Source of the DNA: Escherichia coli
GTDB taxonomy: Bacteria; Pseudomonadota; Gammaproteobacteria; Enterobacterales; Enterobacteriaceae
Length of the DNA stretch: 64,000 nucleotides
Strand: one strand, 5' to 3'
Assembly (NCBI RefSeq): GCF_044324875.1
Contig: NZ_CP172188.1
Within the stretch, counting starts at the first letter, position 1, and the number at the start of each line of letters is the position of its first letter. This document shows, piece after piece, positions 7,608-23,054 of the stretch. Below the pieces are notes generated by a model. That model made no database searches. It had not been told where the DNA came from and worked only from the letters and a program-made list of their open reading frames with translations. The translations under genes were made by a program, and so were the position numbers.

Positions 7608-8363
7608 TTAACGCGTTTTTTCGCTGCTTTCCACTACCGGGGGATTTTTCCTCAGTGACTCTCCCTGAAGGACCACTCGGTGTGAGTTATGTACCAGTCT
7701 GTCCAGGATGGCATCTGCTGTTGTTGGGTTCTCCATCAGACCATGCCATTTATCTACCGGGAACTGGCTTACCACTATCGTGCTGCTTTGTCCGTAACGA
7801 TCCTCTATGAGCTCCAGAAGGTCATTACACTGGGCGTTACTTAACTGTTCCAGCCCCAGATCGTCCAGGATTAGAACCTGTATTTTTTGCAACTGTTTCA
7901 GATATTTCAGCCAGCTGCCATCAACACGTCCCTGAGCCAGTTGTTCCAGTAATCGCCCGGTTCTACAGTACCGGACGCTGTGTTTCTGTCGACATGCCTG
8001 TTCGCCCAGCGCATTGGCTATCCAGCTCTTGCCACATCCTGTCGGACCGGTTATCAGCAGGTTTTTCCTGTGGGTTATGTAGTGGCCGTTCAGCAGTTCT
8101 CTCATCTGTTCAGCCCGCAGACCTCTTGAGGCCGGATAGCGCAGCCCTTCCGGTGTTGCCTGGTATTTCAGGCCGGCATTTTTTCTCAACCGTGCCACAC
8201 GGCTGTTTTCCCTGCTCAGAAGCTCGTCATCAACCAGCAGCGTCAGCCTTTCCTCGAACGACAGTTCGTCGTAGGTCTGAGGCGTTTCCCGCTGCCGTAT
8301 CAGGCTCCCGGCCATCGCCGGGAGTTTCAGTTGGGTCAGTTTGTTTAACAGGTTATCACTCAT
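7608..8363 (-). CDS. istB: IS21-family transposition helper ATPase IstB
   Basis: Walker A GPTGCGKS, DExx-like LILDDLG; start set at MSDNLL with AAGGAA Shine-Dalgarno; the ORF track extends upstream to 8606. Confidence 0.85.
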   Translation of the reverse strand: MSDNLLNKLTQLKLPAMAGSLIRQRETPQTYDELSFEERLTLLVDDELLSRENSRVARLRKNAGLKYQATPEGLRYPASRGLRAEQMRELLNGHYITHRKNLLITGPTGCGKSWIANALGEQACRQKHSVRYCRTGRLLEQLAQGRVDGSWLKYLKQLQKIQVLILDDLGLEQLSNAQCNDLLELIEDRYGQSSTIVVSQFPVDKWHGLMENPTTADAILDRLVHNSHRVVLQGESLRKNPPVVESSEKTR

Positions 8364-8379
8364 ACTGTTGTTCCTTCTG

Positions 8380-9915
8380 TCAGTGGTAGTAGCCCGGACC
8401 ACGCAGGTTTTCATGCTCTGAAGCATATGCCGGATGTTGTTCGCCCTGGCGGGATAATGGAAGCTCCAGGTTCTCCCGATGGTGACGCAGCAGATTGTCG
8501 ATAAAGCGTCTGTCAGGGGCGTTATAGTGCAGGGCAACGTAACAGGCCTTTTCCAGCCGTTCCGGGCCGTATTTTTTCTGAAGTGCCAGCAGCCCCAGAA
8601 CTGCACGATAAGCCAGTTCCGGATGGGGTTTTGCCTTCAGCATGGATTCAACCACCCGGCCTGTGGACGGGCCCGTACGTTTTCCCTGCTCGATCAGGCG
8701 TTCCGGTGTCCATGTCCCGTGCTGCCGGTGGCGCTCTGGCATGTGAAGCGGATTGGTTGTGTGTTTATATTCATGTGTGCTGCGCGGATGTTGCGCCACA
8801 CACTGCCCCTTGTGCCAGAGCTGTACCACCGACTGCCCCGCCTTCAGTGACAGACGCTGACCGACCAGTTCGTGTGGAACGGAGTACCAGTGACGGGCAT
8901 ATTCAACGTGGTAGTCAGGGCCAACCTTCACAGCTTTGTATTCCGTGTATTCATAAGGTGCCAGAGGCAGCGGAGAGAGTGCTGGCGCATCCAGTATGCG
9001 GAAGCGTTCTGCACGGGTTTGATTGCCGTACCCCTTCATTGGCCGGTTATTCATGTCTGTCAGTAACTCCCTAAGGCGCGCATTCAGCGCCCTGAGCGTG
9101 TGGAAGGTTTCATTACGGATGCGGGCAAGAAGCCATCGTTCAACGATGAGGACGCCGTTTTCTGCTTTTGGTTTATCTTTAGGTTTGCGTGGTCGGGCCG
9201 GGATGATAACCGTGCCATAGTGCTCAGCCAGTGCCTGATAACTGTCGTTGATGACAGGCTCATATCGATCGGCCTTTTTCACTGCGCTTCTGAGGTTATC
9301 GGGGATGAGCAGCTTCGGTACGCCGCCCAGGAAGGTCAGGCAACGGCTGTGGGCATTTAACCATGACATCATGTCCTGACCTTCGCACGCTTCAACGTAG
9401 GTATAGTTGGACGCCCCCATTACGGCCACGAAGATTGCCACGCGGCGTATCTCACCGGTGTCCGGATTAATAACAGGAACCGTAGGACCACAGAAGTCGA
9501 TAAAAAGCTTTTCGCCGGCACGATGCTCCTGGCGCATGGAGAGACGTCGCGTTTTTTTCCACTCCCGGTAGCAACGGCAGAAGTGCGAGTATCCCATCGC
9601 TTTGTTACCCGCCTGTGCCTTGTATTCCATCCACAACAGTTGCCGCGTCACACCTGGTTTTCTCATTTCCGTATCGAAGTACAACATGTCAGGCATTACA
9701 AGCTCTGATGCAAAGGTGTCTTTGGGCGGAAAAATGAGTTTCTCCAGCGTGTCATGGGATATATCAGCAGGTAATGGCCATGACAGAGAAGAGGCTTTGA
9801 AGCGGGCAAGAACCTCAAAAACGGTTGAGGCGCTGATGTGTAACGTCAGTCCGATACAACGGTTAGTCAGCTTCTTGTCGAACTTGAGCTGAAGGATCTT
9901 AAAACAGGTTTCCAT
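8380..9915 (-). CDS. istA: IS21-family transposase IstA
   Basis: ~511 aa from METCF... (AGGAG Shine-Dalgarno); N-terminal HTH and a DDE-type core; the ORF track extends to 10026. Confidence 0.85.
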   Translation of the reverse strand: METCFKILQLKFDKKLTNRCIGLTLHISASTVFEVLARFKASSLSWPLPADISHDTLEKLIFPPKDTFASELVMPDMLYFDTEMRKPGVTRQLLWMEYKAQAGNKAMGYSHFCRCYREWKKTRRLSMRQEHRAGEKLFIDFCGPTVPVINPDTGEIRRVAIFVAVMGASNYTYVEACEGQDMMSWLNAHSRCLTFLGGVPKLLIPDNLRSAVKKADRYEPVINDSYQALAEHYGTVIIPARPRKPKDKPKAENGVLIVERWLLARIRNETFHTLRALNARLRELLTDMNNRPMKGYGNQTRAERFRILDAPALSPLPLAPYEYTEYKAVKVGPDYHVEYARHWYSVPHELVGQRLSLKAGQSVVQLWHKGQCVAQHPRSTHEYKHTTNPLHMPERHRQHGTWTPERLIEQGKRTGPSTGRVVESMLKAKPHPELAYRAVLGLLALQKKYGPERLEKACYVALHYNAPDRRFIDNLLRHHRENLELPLSRQGEQHPAYASEHENLRGPGYYH

Positions 9916-10307
9916 AGTGCTCCTGGATTTTCTCTTTCTGGACATTGACGTCTCCACTGGTTTAAACACGGCAATGGAGACTGTGGTGAAAAGAGTTAAT
10001 TCCCGGAGTGACTGGCAGGATGCCAATCAATGATCGGAAGCATGCCAAATCGTGATCGATTGTGATGCCAAACTGTGATCGGAGATGGATGCCAAATCAT
10101 GATCGATTCGAATGCCAAACTGCGATCGATTCAGATGCCATTTTGCAGCCAAATTTCTGTCAAAAAATAAAATCCACAAAAAGTGGTTGACACTATTTTG
10201 GAAATCACAAACTGCACATAATCCATCGCGCTAACGGCTCCCGTTGAAGGTTCTTTTGACGATTAACTTTCAGCCGAAGCGCGGTAGGGAGTCATAACGC
10301 CAAAGCA

Positions 10308-11348: not shown

Positions 11349-11630
11349 TTGATTAAGTCATTTCGCCATAAAGGGCTTGAACGCTTTTTCAAGACAGGTT
11401 CAACCGCAGGCATTCAGGCCAAACATGCGGTTAAGCTACGCATTCAATTGACTGCGCTTAATACAGCTAAACGCCCGGACGATATGTCTGCGCCTGGATG
11501 GGAATTGCACCCTCTAAAGGGGGCGGACCTTAAAGGTCACTGGGCAATATCGGTAAACGGTAACTGGCGACTTACCTTCCGATTTGAAGGAGAAGACGCA
11601 ATTCTAGTTGACTATCAGGATTATCATTGA
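11349..11630 (+). CDS. higB: HigB-type toxin (plasmid-killer / RelE-like fold)
   Basis: [17 protein letters not shown]...[40 protein letters not shown] closely resembles Rts1-type HigB; probable TTG start at 11349. Confidence 0.7.
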
Positions 11631-11638
11631 GGAACACT

Positions 11639-11920
11639 ATGAGTCGTATGCATAATCCCGCGCATCCAGGCGCGGTTCTTCGTGAATATTTGGGAGACAT
11701 GTCAGTCACAGACGCCGCTGCGGCATTAGGCATTACTCGCACGGCGCTTTCCCGAATTCTGAATGAAAAAGCAGGTATATCTGCTGATATGGCACTTCGT
11801 CTGGAGTCCGCTCTTGGAACCAGTGCCGAAATGTGGACCGGTATGCAATCCCAGTATGAGCTTTGGGTTGCTTCGCAAACCACTCGCCCAAACATCCGTC
11901 CATTATTTTTCCACGCATAA
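11639..11920 (+). CDS. higA: HigA-type antitoxin (HTH, XRE-like)
   Basis: [18 protein letters not shown]...[14 protein letters not shown]...; start overlaps the higB stop region; GAGGA Shine-Dalgarno. Confidence 0.7.
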
Positions 11921-12012: not shown

Positions 12013-12342
12013 ATGGGCTATAGCAGACTCGACGATAGGTACATTGAAGACGATATTTTTCGTGCGCTGTTTCACCAGGAAATGATTAAGCGGGTATCGG
12101 AGTATCACTCTGATAATTTCCAGTACACGATAAAGATTGATGAAGTATATCGTTCAGACCTTGCAGCCTACAGGGCGTATGGCAATGCAGATTTGCGCTG
12201 GGTATTCCGGGTGCTGGTGGGCCATGAGTCAGAAATGGAAGAAATGCCCGCCGGGACCACGTTAACTCTTCCTGATGTGGCATGGCTGAGGAATAAGATC
12301 CGTGATTACGCGAGCGCGGAACCGGAGATAGAAAATGCCTGA
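12013..12342 (+). CDS. hypothetical protein (109 aa), first gene of a two-gene operon
   Basis: ORF; its stop overlaps the start of the next gene by 8 nt. Confidence 0.45.
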   Translation: MGYSRLDDRYIEDDIFRALFHQEMIKRVSEYHSDNFQYTIKIDEVYRSDLAAYRAYGNADLRWVFRVLVGHESEMEEMPAGTTLTLPDVAWLRNKIRDYASAEPEIENA

Positions 12343-13525
12343 TTTCCTGAAAAACCAGGACGGGCGCTATATCACTGACGGCCTGTCCTCTAAGGACTTC
12401 ACGCGTTTATTCGACCTTATCAGGAAAGAACAAACCCGTAAGCGCCGGCAAGCTCACCGGACGCTGACGCCAGGTAGACTGAGGAACAAATCCGCCGAAG
12501 ATATTCTCAAGTTAGGGAAGAAAAAAGGCGGCACGTTCTTCACGCGAGACGACCTGAAAGGTTTCGAAAAGCTACGGAGTAAAACGCGCGAAAAATATGA
12601 CAGCAAGACGGCTGGCATCACATACGCCCAGCTGGTGGCATCCAGCCAGGCAATCGATATTAAGCGTGCAAATAACGCCGTGGATGACGGATCTGGTATC
12701 AAAAGAGCTACACCCGTATCTCTTCGCCACAATGTGATTAATATCCGCGTAGAAGCATCGGATATATCCGTCCACCAGCACCATATCGTCCGGATACGCT
12801 TTGAAGAATGGGATCAGATGGTTGATGATATCGCAGAAGACGATAAATCAGCTCTCAAAATCACTAAATCACTGTGCGCCGGGCGAGTGTCTTTCGATTG
12901 TGACTGTGGTCGTCATCAATACTGGTATCGTTACATCGCCACTGCGGGTAACTTTGCCCTGGCACCGCCAAAAGAATACGCCTATCCAAAAGTTCGCAAC
13001 CCGAAGCTGCAAGGCGTCGCCTGTAAACACGTGATCCACTCAATGACGCGGTTACAGTCCGCCAGTTGGCAAATGAGTATTGCTCGTGCGCTACAAAAGG
13101 CTGCAACGCAAATTGCATTTGGTGACGATCGCCGCCGTACAACCAAACACTTCTCAAAAGAAGACGAGAAGGAGTTTAATCGCAATCGTAGCAGTAAAAC
13201 AAACGTTGAAGCCGCCAAACGCGAATGGAGGCTCTATCAGAAGCGCCAGGCAGCTTTAAGTACAAAACTGGCAAAGGACAACGGCAATATCGACAAGCTA
13301 CGTGACCAATTGACCAGGGCCAGAAAGTTGTCAGACGCACAGAAAAAACGGGCGGCTGCAAAAGAAGCGGCCTTGCAACGTGAGAAACAGAAAAATAAGG
13401 AACTTCAGCAACGCCTTGCCGATCAGTTCGCACTGAAGAAGCAGGCGTTCATTGATGCGCTTGTCATGGCTGGAACACCACCAGCACAAGCTGAAAAAAT
13501 GTTCATGGAGTACATAAAAAATTAA
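12335..13525 (+). CDS. hypothetical protein with a SWIM-like zinc-finger motif and a basic coiled-coil C-terminus
   Basis: CAGRVSFDCDCGRHQ...GVACKHVIH (CxC...CxH spacing); Lys/Arg/Glu/Gln-rich C-terminal 130 aa. Confidence 0.5.
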   Translation: MPDFLKNQDGRYITDGLSSKDFTRLFDLIRKEQTRKRRQAHRTLTPGRLRNKSAEDILKLGKKKGGTFFTRDDLKGFEKLRSKTREKYDSKTAGITYAQLVASSQAIDIKRANNAVDDGSGIKRATPVSLRHNVINIRVEASDISVHQHHIVRIRFEEWDQMVDDIAEDDKSALKITKSLCAGRVSFDCDCGRHQYWYRYIATAGNFALAPPKEYAYPKVRNPKLQGVACKHVIHSMTRLQSASWQMSIARALQKAATQIAFGDDRRRTTKHFSKEDEKEFNRNRSSKTNVEAAKREWRLYQKRQAALSTKLAKDNGNIDKLRDQLTRARKLSDAQKKRAAAKEAALQREKQKNKELQQRLADQFALKKQAFIDALVMAGTPPAQAEKMFMEYIKN

Positions 13526-13526
13526 C

Positions 13527-13552
13527 AAAGGTGGGTTTATCCCACCTTTTTA
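13527..13552. terminator. bidirectional terminator between convergent genes
   Basis: aggtggg-tttat-cccacct flanked by A and T runs. Confidence 0.5.
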
Positions 13553-14277
13553 TTAGCATCGCATTTAATTTTTTCAAGTGAATCAGAAAGCTTTGAGAGA
13601 ATCTCCTCAAGTGTCTCCCTGTCATTTGTATCACCCGAACGAAAAGATGAGTTTTTCACGGCAGTAAAAAATTCATAAAAATCATCCAACGAATTTAAGC
13701 TCTCACCTTTCTCTCTATATAATTTAATAACATGACGGATATCGCTATCCACACATTCAATCTGTTCCCTAACTTCTTCTACCTTTCTTTTTAATGATTC
13801 ATGTTCTTCTTTTTCTTTTTCAAGACGCTCTTCAACGTCTTTCCGTTTCTTAGTAAGATCATTAATGTCTCTGTTAATTTTTCTTACTTGTTCTTTTTTG
13901 TCTTCAATTTTATCTATCTCTCTCAATTTAGCGTATATTGTGCCAGTCACCATAGAAATTAGTAAAGTTAACATTGGGGCTAATATTGAAGCCACAACAC
14001 CATAAATAAAAGGCAAGACAAAATGAGCTACGAATGAGGGTACAAAAACATTCCCAAATAATGGAATCTTTTCCCCAACAAACACCATAGATAATGTATA
14101 CATAACATCATCTTTTGACTTCAACAATATAAATATATCTCGCCAGTTAGAAATTAAAAATGAAATAAAAATGTAGGCAAAAACCTTATTAAACAACTTA
14201 TCTTTTACAGCATCTTCTATCAGATTTTGGGCGGATGATTTTTCATTTTCCTTTTCTATTGATGAATCAGTGCTCAT
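13537..14277 (-). CDS. membrane protein with a long C-terminal coiled coil (unknown function)
   Basis: 246 aa; hydrophobic segments (FAYIFISFLISNW; VFVPSFVAHFVLPFIYGVVASILAPMLTLLISMV) then a K/E-rich heptad-like region; visibly AT-rich. Confidence 0.5.
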   Translation of the reverse strand: MSTDSSIEKENEKSSAQNLIEDAVKDKLFNKVFAYIFISFLISNWRDIFILLKSKDDVMYTLSMVFVGEKIPLFGNVFVPSFVAHFVLPFIYGVVASILAPMLTLLISMVTGTIYAKLREIDKIEDKKEQVRKINRDINDLTKKRKDVEERLEKEKEEHESLKRKVEEVREQIECVDSDIRHVIKLYREKGESLNSLDDFYEFFTAVKNSSFRSGDTNDRETLEEILSKLSDSLEKIKCDANKKVG

Positions 14278-14337
14278 ATAATCACCAAATATTTAAACCT
14301 TGATTTTATGTAAAATCGGCCCTCCAGACTGCCAAAC

Positions 14338-14718
14338 TTAAACACCAACTAGGCTTTCAAGAGGAATGCCAAACTGGGAATGTAAACGACGAATCATAGG
14401 TAACGTTAAATTTCGTGTCCCATTTAGCACTTCGTAAACACGATTTGACTTACCAATCGCCGGTTCCAGATCCTTCACGGTCAACCCTTGCTATTCCATA
14501 CGGGATTTAATGGCTTCAATAGGTGATGGCGGCTCAATTGGGTAATGTTTTTTCTCGTACTCCTCAATGAGAAGACACATAACCTCCAAGAAATTACCTT
14601 CCGGGGTGTTCGTTTCCGGTTCGTTATCGAACATCGGTTCTACCGCACGCAGTGCGGCCTCATAATCTTGTTCTGTACGGATAGTTTTAATGTTCATTAA
14701 TTCCAAAGGAAAGCCCAC
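14338..14718 (-). pseudogene. higA-like antitoxin gene (N-domain plus HTH) interrupted by an in-frame TAG
   Basis: 75-aa ORF ...IKSRME then TAG at 14491-14493; the same frame continues QGLTVKDLEPAIGKSNRVYEVLNGTRNLTLPMIRRLHSQFGIPLESLVGV to TAA at 14338, resembling the E. coli K-12 HigA C-terminal HTH. Confidence 0.45.
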
Positions 14719-14753
14719 TTGTTAAGTGGGCTTTTTGTATGTGTTTTACTATA

Positions 14754-15092
14754 TCAGGCTGCTTTTTTATTCAGGTTCCGCTGAGAAATAAATTTTTCAG
14801 CAGTATTGATACGACTTAACTCTTCCTGAACGCGCATGTCATTTTCGACTTCCCACAGGTCTACTGCGGTCTGGAGATTAATCCAAAAATCTACAGAAGT
14901 ATCGAATGCTTTTGCCAGGCGATATGCCATATCCATCGTTAGCTTACGATTATTATTAACAAGAGCACTTACGGTGTTACGATGAACATGAAGTATTTCT
15001 GCTAACTCGTTGATCTTCAGCTCTAACGGCTCCAGGTATTCGTACAGCAGGATATCACCTACGGTCGTCGGTTTTCTGGTTGCCTGTTTCAT
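14754..15092 (-). CDS. higA: HigA-family antitoxin (HTH), second TA pair
   Basis: KPTTVGDILLYEYLEPLELKINELAEILHVHRNTVSALVNNNRKLT...FWINLQTAVDLW matches the HigA antidote pattern. Confidence 0.7.
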   Translation of the reverse strand: MKQATRKPTTVGDILLYEYLEPLELKINELAEILHVHRNTVSALVNNNRKLTMDMAYRLAKAFDTSVDFWINLQTAVDLWEVENDMRVQEELSRINTAEKFISQRNLNKKAA

Positions 15093-15162
15093 TTTTTGCC
15101 CTTACTAGCGTGCGTATTAAGTGGACTCTGGTCAGAACCCGGTCCGTAACCGGGTATCTGTT

Positions 15163-15465
15163 TTAGTATTTGTGAGGGTCGAGATACAAGTCCTCGGCCT
15201 TTCCGTTAACCCACTTAAAAATTAACCTATATTGCTTATTCACCCTTACTGATGAATAGCCATTTAGCTTCCCTGACAGTTCCTCATACCGATTACCTGG
15301 TGGTGATCTTAAATCCTTACAGGTAGTTGCGGCATTGATAATGTCCAACTTCCGTGACAATGTCATATGAATATCAGGAGGTATCTTTCTATGTGGTGTT
15401 GAAAATTCAAAAAAATCATCAAGCCACGCATCCCTGAAATCCTTTATGTTAATTTTTTTGGTCAT
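15163..15465 (-). CDS. higB: HigB-like killer toxin, second TA pair
   Basis: ...DLRSPPGNRYEELSGKLNGYSSVRVNKQYRLIFKWVNGKAEDLYLDPHKY resembles the plasmid-killer (HigB) family; lies immediately upstream of the antitoxin. Confidence 0.65.
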   Translation of the reverse strand: MTKKINIKDFRDAWLDDFFEFSTPHRKIPPDIHMTLSRKLDIINAATTCKDLRSPPGNRYEELSGKLNGYSSVRVNKQYRLIFKWVNGKAEDLYLDPHKY

Positions 15466-15627
15466 TAGTCATTTGATCCTCCGTGATGATTACCGAATGC
15501 CATAACTATAGCGCACTGTTGCACTGTGCGCAAGTGCATTTTATGAATTCCCCCTCCTTCATCCAAAATCACAATCTCCCGAAAATCTTCCTTTCGATAC
15601 CTGACAGATCGACCTTTGAGGATGCTT

Positions 15628-21392: not shown

Positions 21393-23054
21393 TTAACCTA
21401 ACTTCGCCCAGGTATCACGCAGCCCAACGGTGCGGTTAAATACCGGTTTTTCCGCCGTAGAATGGCGGCTATCGAGGCAGAAGTAACCTTCACGCTCAAA
21501 CTGGAATGCTTTACCCGCAACCGCATCTTTCAGCGACGGTTCAGCAAAGCCCTGTTTGATCACCAGCGATTCCGGGTTAATCACCGACAGGAAATCATCC
21601 GCAGCACCTGGGTTAGGCACGCTGAACAGACGATCGTACAGGCGGATTTCAACCGGCAGCGCATGTGCCGCGCTCACCCAGTGAATAACGCCTTTCACTT
21701 TACGACCATCTGCCGGATCTTTGCTTAAGGTGTCGGCGTCATAAGTACAGAAGATGGTGGTGATATTGCCTTCGGCATCTTTCTCCACGCGTTCAGCCTT
21801 AATGACGTAAGCATTACGCAGACGCACTTCTTTACCCAGCACCAGACGTTTGTACTGCTTGTTAGCTTCTTCGCGGAAATCGGCGCGGTCGATCCAAATC
21901 TCACCGCTAAACGGCACCTGACGGCTACCCATTTCCGGTTTGTTCGGATGGTTCGGCATGGTGACCATTTCGCCTTCGCCCTGGTAGTTTTCGATAACCA
22001 GTTTCACCGGATCGATAACCGCCATTGCGCGCGGCGCATTTTCGTTGAGATCTTCACGGATGCAGGATTCCAGCGACGCCATCTCAATGGTGTTGTCCTG
22101 CTTGGTCACGCCGATGCGTTTGCAGAACTCACGAATAGAAGCCGCAGTGTAACCACGACGACGCAGACCGGAAATGGTCGGCATACGCGGGTCATCCCAG
22201 CCTTCAACGTGTTTGTCGGTCACCAGCAGGTTCAGCTTACGCTTGGACATCACGGTGTATTCCAGATTCAGGCGCGAGAATTCGTACTGGCGCGGGTGAA
22301 CAGGAATGGTGATGTTGTCCAGCACCCAGTCGTACAGGCGACGGTTGTCCTGGAACTCAAGCGTACACAGAGAGTGCGTAATACCTTCCAGCGCATCGCT
22401 GATGCAATGGGTGAAGTCGTACATCGGGTAGATGCACCACTTGTTGCCAGTCTGGTGGTGTTCAGCAAATTTAATGCGGTACAGCACCGGATCGCGCATT
22501 ACGATAAATGGCGACGCCATGTCGATTTTCGCACGCAGGCAGGCTTTACCTTCTTCAAAACCACCGGCACGCATTTTTTCGAACAGCGCCAGGTTCTCTT
22601 CAACGCTGCGATCGCGGTACGGGCTGTTTTTACCCGGCTGCGTCAGGGTGCCGCGGTATTCGCGGATCTGTTCCGGCGTCAGTTCGTCAACATACGCCAG
22701 GCCTTTGTTGATCAGTTCAACAGCATAGGCGTGGAGCTGATCAAAATAATCGGAGGAGTAACGGATGTTGCCAGACCAGTGAAAACCTAACCATTCAACG
22801 TCGTTTTTAATCGACTCGACGTACTCGATATCTTCTTTTACCGGGTTAGTGTCGTCGAAACGCAGGTTGCACTGGCCTTTATAGTCCTGGGCGATCCCGA
22901 AGTTCAGGCAGATAGATTTCGCATGACCAATATGCAGATAGCCATTCGGTTCCGGCGGGAAACGGGTATGTACTGTGGTGTGCTTACCACTGGCCAGATC
23001 TTCATCGATGATCTGACGAATAAAGTTAGTCGGGCGGGCTTCTGCCTCACTCAT
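21393..23054 (-). CDS. glnS: glutamine--tRNA ligase (GlnRS)
   Basis: 553 aa, colinear with E. coli GlnS over the whole length as I recall it (HIGH motif, VMSKR motif); C-terminus ...WAKLG. Confidence 0.95.

Follow-up and report, generated by a model that had tools for sequence, protein, structure and literature searches.

A PHROG 8191 membrane coiled-coil protein carried as mobile cargo between the tail genes of a D6-like phage-plasmid of Escherichia coli

RESULTS AND DISCUSSION

The gene and its place in a D6-like phage-plasmid

In the stretch of Escherichia coli DNA analyzed here (64,000 nucleotides of contig NZ_CP172188.1, referred to as the window), an open reading frame (ORF) on the minus strand at 13537..14277 starts with ATG and encodes 246 amino acids (aa) followed by a stop codon. 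It specifies a membrane coiled-coil protein that belongs to PHROG 8191 and is the homolog of orf73 of phage D6. The first-pass annotation had read it as an AT-rich gene of an unrecognized family beside toxin-antitoxin (TA) modules and had proposed it as a candidate exclusion or abortive-infection effector. The ORF list confirms the intact 246-aa frame and its ATG start, and the AT-richness relative to the neighbors is equally clear: GC content is 0.32 and GC at third codon positions (GC3) is 0.27, compared with a GC content of 0.47 for the window and values of 0.49 (GC) and 0.52 (GC3) for the neighboring gene 25. The exact protein sequence is found on 140 public E. coli contigs, on every one of which it is labeled hypothetical protein.

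Judged by its sequence, the window is part of a D6-like phage-plasmid, D6 being a relative of P1 whose prophage is a plasmid. The flanks share 97% identity with Escherichia phage D6 and with many D6-like plasmids of E. coli and Salmonella. The genes on either side are homologs of P1 genes 26, 7, 24, 6, and 5, and the convergent gene, previously described as encoding a SWIM protein, encodes the homolog of the P1 tail protein gp25 (98.7% aa identity to D6 orf74 and 57% to P1 gp25). The ORF lies in a 2.1-kb stretch on the minus strand (13526..15615) between tail genes 25 (12335-13525, plus strand) and 7 (from ~15616, plus strand). Because genes 25 and 7 are only 3 nt apart in P1, in one late operon, we regard this opposite-strand stretch as an inserted accessory island, which is also present in D6 and other D6-like plasmids.

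The ORF and gene 25 converge on a common bidirectional intrinsic-terminator hairpin (13527..13549, both strands), as had been proposed from the letters alone. The hairpin overlaps the stop codon of the ORF and has a folding energy of −14.1 kcal/mol on each strand (z of −4.07 and −4.21; none of 200 shuffled sequences folded equally well), and a terminator scan found a T-run on either side of it. The island and this terminator split a late operon that is continuous in P1. Since the operon is cut, gene 7 and the downstream tail genes of D6-like phages would need either their own late promoter or read-through of the island.

Predicted architecture of the protein

Hydropathy places the hydrophobic segments of the protein at aa 32-52 and 71-115. 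Two to three such segments had been noted before; they exist, but an alignment of 34 family sequences leaves only two transmembrane (TM) helices family-wide, at aa 32-52 and ~82-111, and aa 72-81 are an insert confined to D6-type alleles. All segments described here lie on the minus strand. TM helix 1 (14122..14184; aa 32-52) is supported by hydropathy, the AlphaFold2 model, and the alignment, and it contains the family-wide residues Y35, S39, N44, and W45, with positions 46-47 polar throughout. In the AlphaFold2 model, helices span aa 31-43 and 45-53, TM1 is kinked at N44, and a short loop helix comes after it; a conserved KSKDD turn (aa 53-57) follows TM1. TM helix 2 (13945..14034; aa 82-111) is supported by hydropathy, the alignment, and a single AlphaFold2 helix spanning aa 81-189, and it includes P89, G93, P101, and T/S104. 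In the alignment, N44, P89, and P101 occur in every sequence, and more than 90% of the sequences have S39, S54, and G93 (94% for G93).

TM2 passes unbroken into the coiled coil within the helix of aa 81-189, for which the predicted local distance difference test (pLDDT) score reaches 91-97 in blocks of aa 121-170; the mean pLDDT of the model is 77. The predicted cytoplasmic coiled coil (13708..13932; aa 116-190) consists of about 11 heptads in one register, with LIVMFY residues at 68% of the a and d positions versus 7% elsewhere, a bias that none of 5,000 shuffles reached. The charged heptad-like stretch of ~110 aa described in the first-pass annotation is therefore a real coiled coil, although it is only ~75 residues long. 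The remaining aa 191-246 (13540..13707) form a C-terminal helical head of two further helices (aa 197-209 and 217-245 in the AlphaFold2 model), which are not heptads, and the alignment consensus has a weakly conserved Y...I....D...F pattern at the junction of coil and head.

K/R-rich flanks N-terminal to TM1 and after TM2 suggest that both termini are cytoplasmic (N-in/C-in), which is a prediction; the part predicted to face the periplasm is a loop of about 25-30 aa. The predicted layout is thus a short cytoplasmic N-terminal tail, a two-helix TM hairpin, a coiled coil of ~75 residues that continues TM2, and a helical head. The protein has the architecture of PHROG 8191, namely, an N-terminal two-TM domain with N44, P89, and P101 and, after it, a helical tail that forms a coiled coil.

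Family and distribution

The protein matched phrog_8191 with an E value of 9.7e-75, residues 1-244 aligning to profile positions 1-242 of 242. The type member, phage D6 orf73 (ASR76396; E value of 6e-115), occupies the equivalent locus and is 37.6% identical in aa sequence. Nine of the ten relatives tested matched the same profile (E values of 6e-115 to 3.9e-13), and the tenth (P0036) matched phrog_13369 and phrog_4780, two related PHROGs of unknown function that other distant members match as well. The family is already catalogued as PHROG 8191 but is functionally uncharacterized, being listed there as function unknown. Like the locus, the architecture is shared with PHROG 8191 through D6 orf73; as PHROGs 8191, 13369, and 4780 carry no functional annotation, belonging to them gives the protein a name but no explanation.

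When 1.84 billion cluster representatives were scanned exhaustively with HMMER, only 39 relatives were found at an E value of ≤0.001, and a profile search of a set of 5.8 billion proteins added almost no further ones. Relatives are present in D6-like plasmids of E. coli, Salmonella, and Enterobacter and in Klebsiella IncFIB plasmids, where the copy is cut short by IS903B. They also occur in a second phage-plasmid-like backbone of ~95 kb from Citrobacter and Salmonella, which has a Gp23-like capsid gene, ParA, and an SLT protein, which we suspect to be SSU5-like, and in which the family member is placed after HigBA or TacAT. In a Klebsiella P2-like prophage, the member is a lone gene on the opposite strand, flanked by gpV and tail-completion genes; in a lambdoid prophage, it lies between replication genes and nin-type genes; and at the end of a Raoultella prophage, it adjoins pepN. 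All members are AT-rich compared with their own loci (GC content of 0.29-0.41 versus 0.45-0.56). Because the relatives are scattered over unrelated temperate elements and are all AT-rich compared with their surroundings, we conclude that the gene is a mobile cargo ("moron") cassette of temperate elements and not a virion or lysis gene.

Two of these settings deserve separate mention. In Klebsiella pNH25.1 and about 50 similar IncFIB plasmids (contig L017, 5998-6411), IS903B cuts the member at aa 137, and the upstream HigB and helix-turn-helix (HTH) genes are intact. All Klebsiella plasmid matches align over the same residues, 3-134, which suggests, from the sequences compared, that a single insertion has spread clonally. 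On a metagenome contig (L021, 6485-7396), a distant member adjoins a WYL/WCX-domain regulator (PADLOC WYL; E value of 8e-21) and a protein of >1000 aa without a match, a setting that may be defence-island-like. A PADLOC search for defence genes next to distant members found only this WYL regulator beside the one metagenomic copy.

Allele exchange and selection

A sliding-window alignment with D6 gave 93-100% identity up to ~13521 and from ~14340, and only 43-77% across the ORF and the 60-nt spacer upstream of it. Because the identity drops only across the ORF and the spacer, the gene is exchanged as a whole unit. A replacement limited to the 3′ two-thirds of the gene, as read from blastn blocks against D6, was ruled out by the same alignment, in which the whole gene and the spacer are divergent. 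The closest allele, that of pF374-2, has 82% aa identity, and comparison with it shows one more mosaic patch, within the coiled coil. Among 15 alleles, identity is 43-99% for the membrane domain and 14-99% for the cytoplasmic part, the membrane domain having the higher or an equal value in every pair. The part that varies most is the coiled coil, with 19% identity to the D6 allele; the head has 26%.

The ratio of nonsynonymous to synonymous substitution rates (dN/dS) follows the same division. For the membrane domain, it is 0.11 against pF374-2 (aa 31-115; 18 synonymous and 8 nonsynonymous differences), or 0.13 over aa 20-114, and 0.14-0.21 in four other allele pairs, despite the saturation of dS, which is 1.2-1.9 between allele classes. 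For the cytoplasmic part, it is 0.16-0.79, the value of 0.79 being that of the coiled coil against pF374-2; gene 25 has a dN/dS of 0.05. To judge from these substitution patterns, the gene is clearly functional, with its membrane module under purifying selection, and the diversity at the locus reflects recombination among alleles of long standing. Rapid drift would be expected of a coiled coil anyway.

These results also bear on the possibility that the gene encodes a virion or lysis component conserved among D6-like phages, which its site between tail and baseplate genes might suggest, together with one PHROG match to an Rz-like spanin (E value of 0.008) that covers the coiled-coil region only. 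However, the gene is read from the opposite strand, is set apart by a terminator, and belongs to an inserted island that also holds TA genes, and P1 lacks it, the flanking genes being contiguous there. The cytoplasmic part is as little as 14% identical between alleles at this one locus, and the relatives are cargo on non-phage plasmids and, in other types of phage, at unrelated sites. We consider a virion or lysis role very improbable, and the finding that could have overturned the first proposal, that of a conserved virion or lysis protein, did not emerge.

Association with toxin-antitoxin genes

The first genes of the island are those of a RelE/HigB-type toxin (15163-15465, minus strand; named after the D6 annotation) and a HigA antitoxin (14754-15092, minus strand; TIGR02607, 102.5 bits versus a cutoff of 47.7). 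They are followed by an orphan HigA-like HTH antitoxin gene (14338..14718, minus strand), which is inactivated by an in-frame TAG at 14491-14493; the decayed higA-like gene and the HigBA pair had thus been recognized correctly. A 60-nt spacer (14278..14337, minus strand), with GGTGA 4 nt 5′ of the ATG, separates this pseudogene from the ORF. The orphan gene has 93-94% aa identity to the intact D6 orf72 and to WP_001022419 of pF374-2. In pF374-2, the HTH gene is intact and has a HigB-family toxin gene upstream, and that cognate toxin is missing in the window. In pE2863-2, the HTH antitoxin gene has independently been cut short.

The order HigB (PF09907)-HTH-membrane gene recurs on the same strand in D6-like plasmids of E. 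coli and Enterobacter, in Klebsiella IncFIB plasmids, and in the second phage-plasmid backbone. Three deeply diverged versions of this arrangement exist, between which HigB is 22-54% identical, the HTH protein is 27-54% identical, and the membrane protein (X) is 20-35% identical. The comparison of these loci indicates that the decayed higA is the orphaned antitoxin of the HigB-HigA module that precedes the family in several other elements and not a random neighbor. In the window and in D6, the RelE-type HigBA pair appears to have displaced the original HigB, leaving the orphan antitoxin behind. A comparable trace is seen on a Citrobacter/Salmonella contig (L012, 5622-6000), where an untranslated remnant between tacT and the family member resembles the N-terminal half of the HigA-type HTH protein of contig L020; there, TacAT has apparently replaced HigBA, mirroring the window. 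This looks like repeated displacement of one TA pair by another at one spot.

The linkage of HigB, HTH, and membrane genes is, as far as these arrangements tell, old but not obligatory, because the membrane gene is intact without its TA pair, is found alone in three prophage types, and can be truncated where HigB-HTH survives. Transcription of the ORF probably arrives from the upstream TA genes, which are needed in the plasmid state. The spacer folds into a strong hairpin in four relatives (z of −2.5 in D6, −1.9 in pF374-2, −5.3 in L019, and −2.6 in L020); in the window, it is degenerate (z of +0.38).

One interpretation of this neighborhood is that the gene is the third cistron of a HigB (PF09907)-HigA module, encoding a membrane effector or modulator dosed by the autoregulated TA promoter, of which the window copy would be a leftover. 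The constant order and strand in three deeply diverged versions, the decayed HigA remnant between tacT and X in the TacAT context, and spacers of only 55-70 nt with a hairpin, which leave little room for a separate promoter, are consistent with it. The tripartite toxin-antitoxin-chaperone (TAC) systems, in which HigB-HigA is followed by a SecB-like chaperone, offer a precedent, in that a third gene directly follows HigB-HigA in several of the elements studied here. Unlike in TAC systems, however, the third gene encodes a membrane coiled-coil protein, the model of which is all-helical and membrane-anchored and which has no match to a chaperone, and the linkage is facultative. Moreover, X stands alone in the P2-like and lambdoid prophages and at the Raoultella prophage end, it has stayed intact in the window and in pE2863-2, which have lost HigB and have a broken HigA, and HigB-HTH is intact where IS903B truncates X. 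In two plasmids, HigB is 100% and the HTH protein 98% identical, whereas the membrane proteins are only 50% identical, which is not the pattern of tight coevolution. The adjacency may instead be hitch-hiking in a cargo hotspot, and we regard a role as the third cistron of such a module as unlikely. The recurring HigB-HigA-X order, with the TA pair repeatedly replaced while X is kept, would be a useful case of how TA and cargo genes are assembled in hotspots.

Homology searches and comparison with known systems

The first-pass annotation did not recognize the family, and outside its own small family the protein has no relative in Pfam, NCBIfam, PADLOC, the PDB, or the AlphaFold database, PHROG 8191 being of unknown function. 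Pfam searches with the protein and with all 34 family members brought up nothing but coiled-coil noise that stayed far below the cutoffs, and NCBIfam has no family for the protein and returned only similar sub-cutoff noise. A profile sequence search of the PDB gave coiled-coil matches only (best E value of 0.0058). Structure prediction did deliver the two TM helices and the helix of aa 81-189, but fold searches with the AlphaFold2 model revealed no fold relative: AFDB50 returned two family members only, plus an SMC match due to the long helix, and BFVD returned no viral match at an E value of ≤0.001. The gene is not mentioned in studies of D6-like plasmids (PMC6799933), of phage-plasmid recombination (PMC10879196), of RelE/ParE toxins (PMC11980606), or of P2/P4 hotspots (PMC9122126).

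Several groups of membrane proteins nevertheless invite comparison. T4 Imm, P22 SieA, and HK97 gp15 are superinfection-exclusion membrane proteins, and gp15 is inserted in a morphogenesis region. By analogy, the protein studied here is likewise temperate-phage cargo, is predicted to reside in the inner membrane, and is encoded by a morphogenesis-region insert like that of HK97 gp15. The searches revealed no sequence or fold similarity to these proteins, however, and it differs from them in its large cytoplasmic coiled coil and minimal periplasmic exposure, both predicted. If it were a classical superinfection-exclusion protein, it would block the entry of phage genomes at the inner membrane without killing the cell. 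A small inner-membrane cargo protein encoded on the opposite strand among the tail genes of a temperate phage would suit this role, as would the conservation across hosts of the membrane domain and a short loop (KSKDD...TL) and the presence of many alleles at the locus, which is often seen for specificity determinants. On the other hand, the predicted periplasmic exposure is limited to the short loop between the helices, the variable and presumably specificity-bearing part is cytoplasmic, and the 25 best PHROG matches include none with a superinfection-exclusion annotation. We consider this role doubtful.

The membrane effectors of abortive-infection systems, such as lambda RexB and the 2TM/4TM and SAVED-TM effectors of cyclic oligonucleotide-based antiphage signaling systems (CBASS), offer another comparison: the protein studied here is small and prophage-borne, and its one conserved module is a TM hairpin whose invariant residues are polar or helix-breaking. 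Weak single PADLOC matches to "SAVED4--SAVED_TM" (E value of 0.0013) and, for one relative, to "2TM Effector" (E value of 4e-4) did not recur and were not relied on. Unlike these effectors, the ORF has no CD-NTase/SAVED, cyclase, RexA-like, or other sensor gene adjacent to it, the neighbors being tail and TA genes only. Because no sensor gene is adjacent, the sensor, if the protein is an effector, would have to be its own cytoplasmic coil and head.

Two further comparisons concern roles outside defence. With class II holins and pinholins, the protein would share two predicted TM helices, predicted cytoplasmic location of both ends, and a highly charged C terminus; it differs in having 246 aa with a 130-aa helical tail and in being encoded outside any lysis cassette, between genes 25 and 7. 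With membrane-anchored coiled-coil scaffolds of the EzrA type, it gave scores far below the cutoffs that are driven by coiled-coil composition, and it differs from these scaffolds in having two TM helices, in being much shorter, and in being encoded by a mobile element. A nondefence membrane role, such as tethering or organizing through the coiled coil, modulating the division or envelope of the lysogen, or holin-like tuning of lysis, would be an alternative. However, no holin family appeared among the Pfam and PHROG matches listed, P1 lacks the gene, so that it is dispensable for P1-type biology, and the replacement of alleles as whole genes and the patchy distribution are hard to square with a housekeeping role for the element. 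We therefore see a nondefence role as rather unlikely.

A possible role in excluding or aborting infection by other phages

The interpretation that we tentatively favor, while granting it less than an even chance, is that the gene encodes an inner-membrane factor that is expressed in the lysogen and excludes or aborts infection by other phages. We infer this role because the only conserved module is a TM hairpin, with a buried invariant Asn and helix-breaking Pro and Gly residues and with a rigid connection to a coiled coil that would mediate oligomerization, because no enzymatic domain is present, and because the gene is exchangeable cargo co-oriented with genes of the carrier state. The cargo context, the orientation shared with the TA genes, the purifying selection on the membrane domain, and the many divergent alleles all fit a lysogen-expressed accessory membrane factor, and the anti-phage systems known so far usually have TM proteins as their suicide effectors (PMC9122126). 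Under this interpretation, the gene would be transcribed in the plasmid-prophage state. The conserved TM hairpin, oligomerized through the coiled coil, would be the effector that permeabilizes or blocks the inner membrane, and the exchangeable cytoplasmic coil and head would set what it responds to.

A number of results weigh against an exclusion or abortive-infection role. The early proposal agrees with the genomic context, selection, and allele diversity, but no result ties the gene directly to exclusion or abortive infection. The best matches of the protein in PADLOC-DB v2.0 were the coiled-coil regions of LmuB, JetC, and PbeC, at 12-19 bits, and ten further members gave either no match or unrelated single weak hits that did not recur across the 11 members. 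No structural relative outside the family was present in AFDB50, the PDB, or BFVD, and no paper was found that names the accessions or the PHROG identifier. Positive selection was looked for and not found, dN/dS being ≤0.79 everywhere, and the variability may reflect low constraint on the coiled coil plus recombination and not an arms race. Among 50,697 phage genomes, a family member occurs in D6 only. Shortened copies persist, including the Klebsiella copy cut by IS903B and a 188-aa variant on five contigs. Finally, no convincing sigma-70 promoter was detected upstream of the ORF, scan hits being no commoner there than in shuffled sequence.

A more far-reaching version would make the family a self-contained anti-phage module, in which a two-TM pore or blocking hairpin is gated by a swappable coil-head sensor; ancestrally, it would have been the third cistron of an autoregulated HigB-HigA operon, and loss of the antitoxin during infection would free the RNase together with a burst of the effector. 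We think that this scheme has only a slim chance of being correct.

If the function suggested by the context is true, the proteins would be a new family within the known class of prophage-borne membrane defence and exclusion proteins. Were phage exclusion their function, the defence repertoire of the phage-plasmids and prophages of Enterobacteriaceae, elements which also spread resistance genes, would gain a new membrane family that acts as a single gene, and the alleles would provide natural domain swaps for mapping what a membrane effector senses. Without a phenotype, the gene is one more hypothetical AT-rich cargo gene.

Other features of the window

Three further differences and gene contents of the element were recorded. 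A complete IS21-family element (7608-10026, minus strand) lies between a simB-like gene and mat, where D6 has a short intergenic gap; it encodes IstA (8380-~9945; NF033546, 285 bits) and the helper ATPase IstB (7608-8390; NF038214, 258 bits). A second RelE/ParE-type toxin and HigA pair (TIGR02607, 99 bits) is located at 11349-11920 (plus strand) between mat and gene 26. This pair, which phage D6 and pE2863-2 lack, is also carried by pF374-2 and pB2C_96, and because of it the element carries two HigBA-type pairs in addition to the orphan antitoxin. A 553-aa ORF at 21393-23054 (minus strand) probably encodes glutaminyl-tRNA synthetase (glnS), as annotated in the best-matching plasmids; the carriage of glnS by D6-like plasmids has been remarked on previously (PMC6799933).

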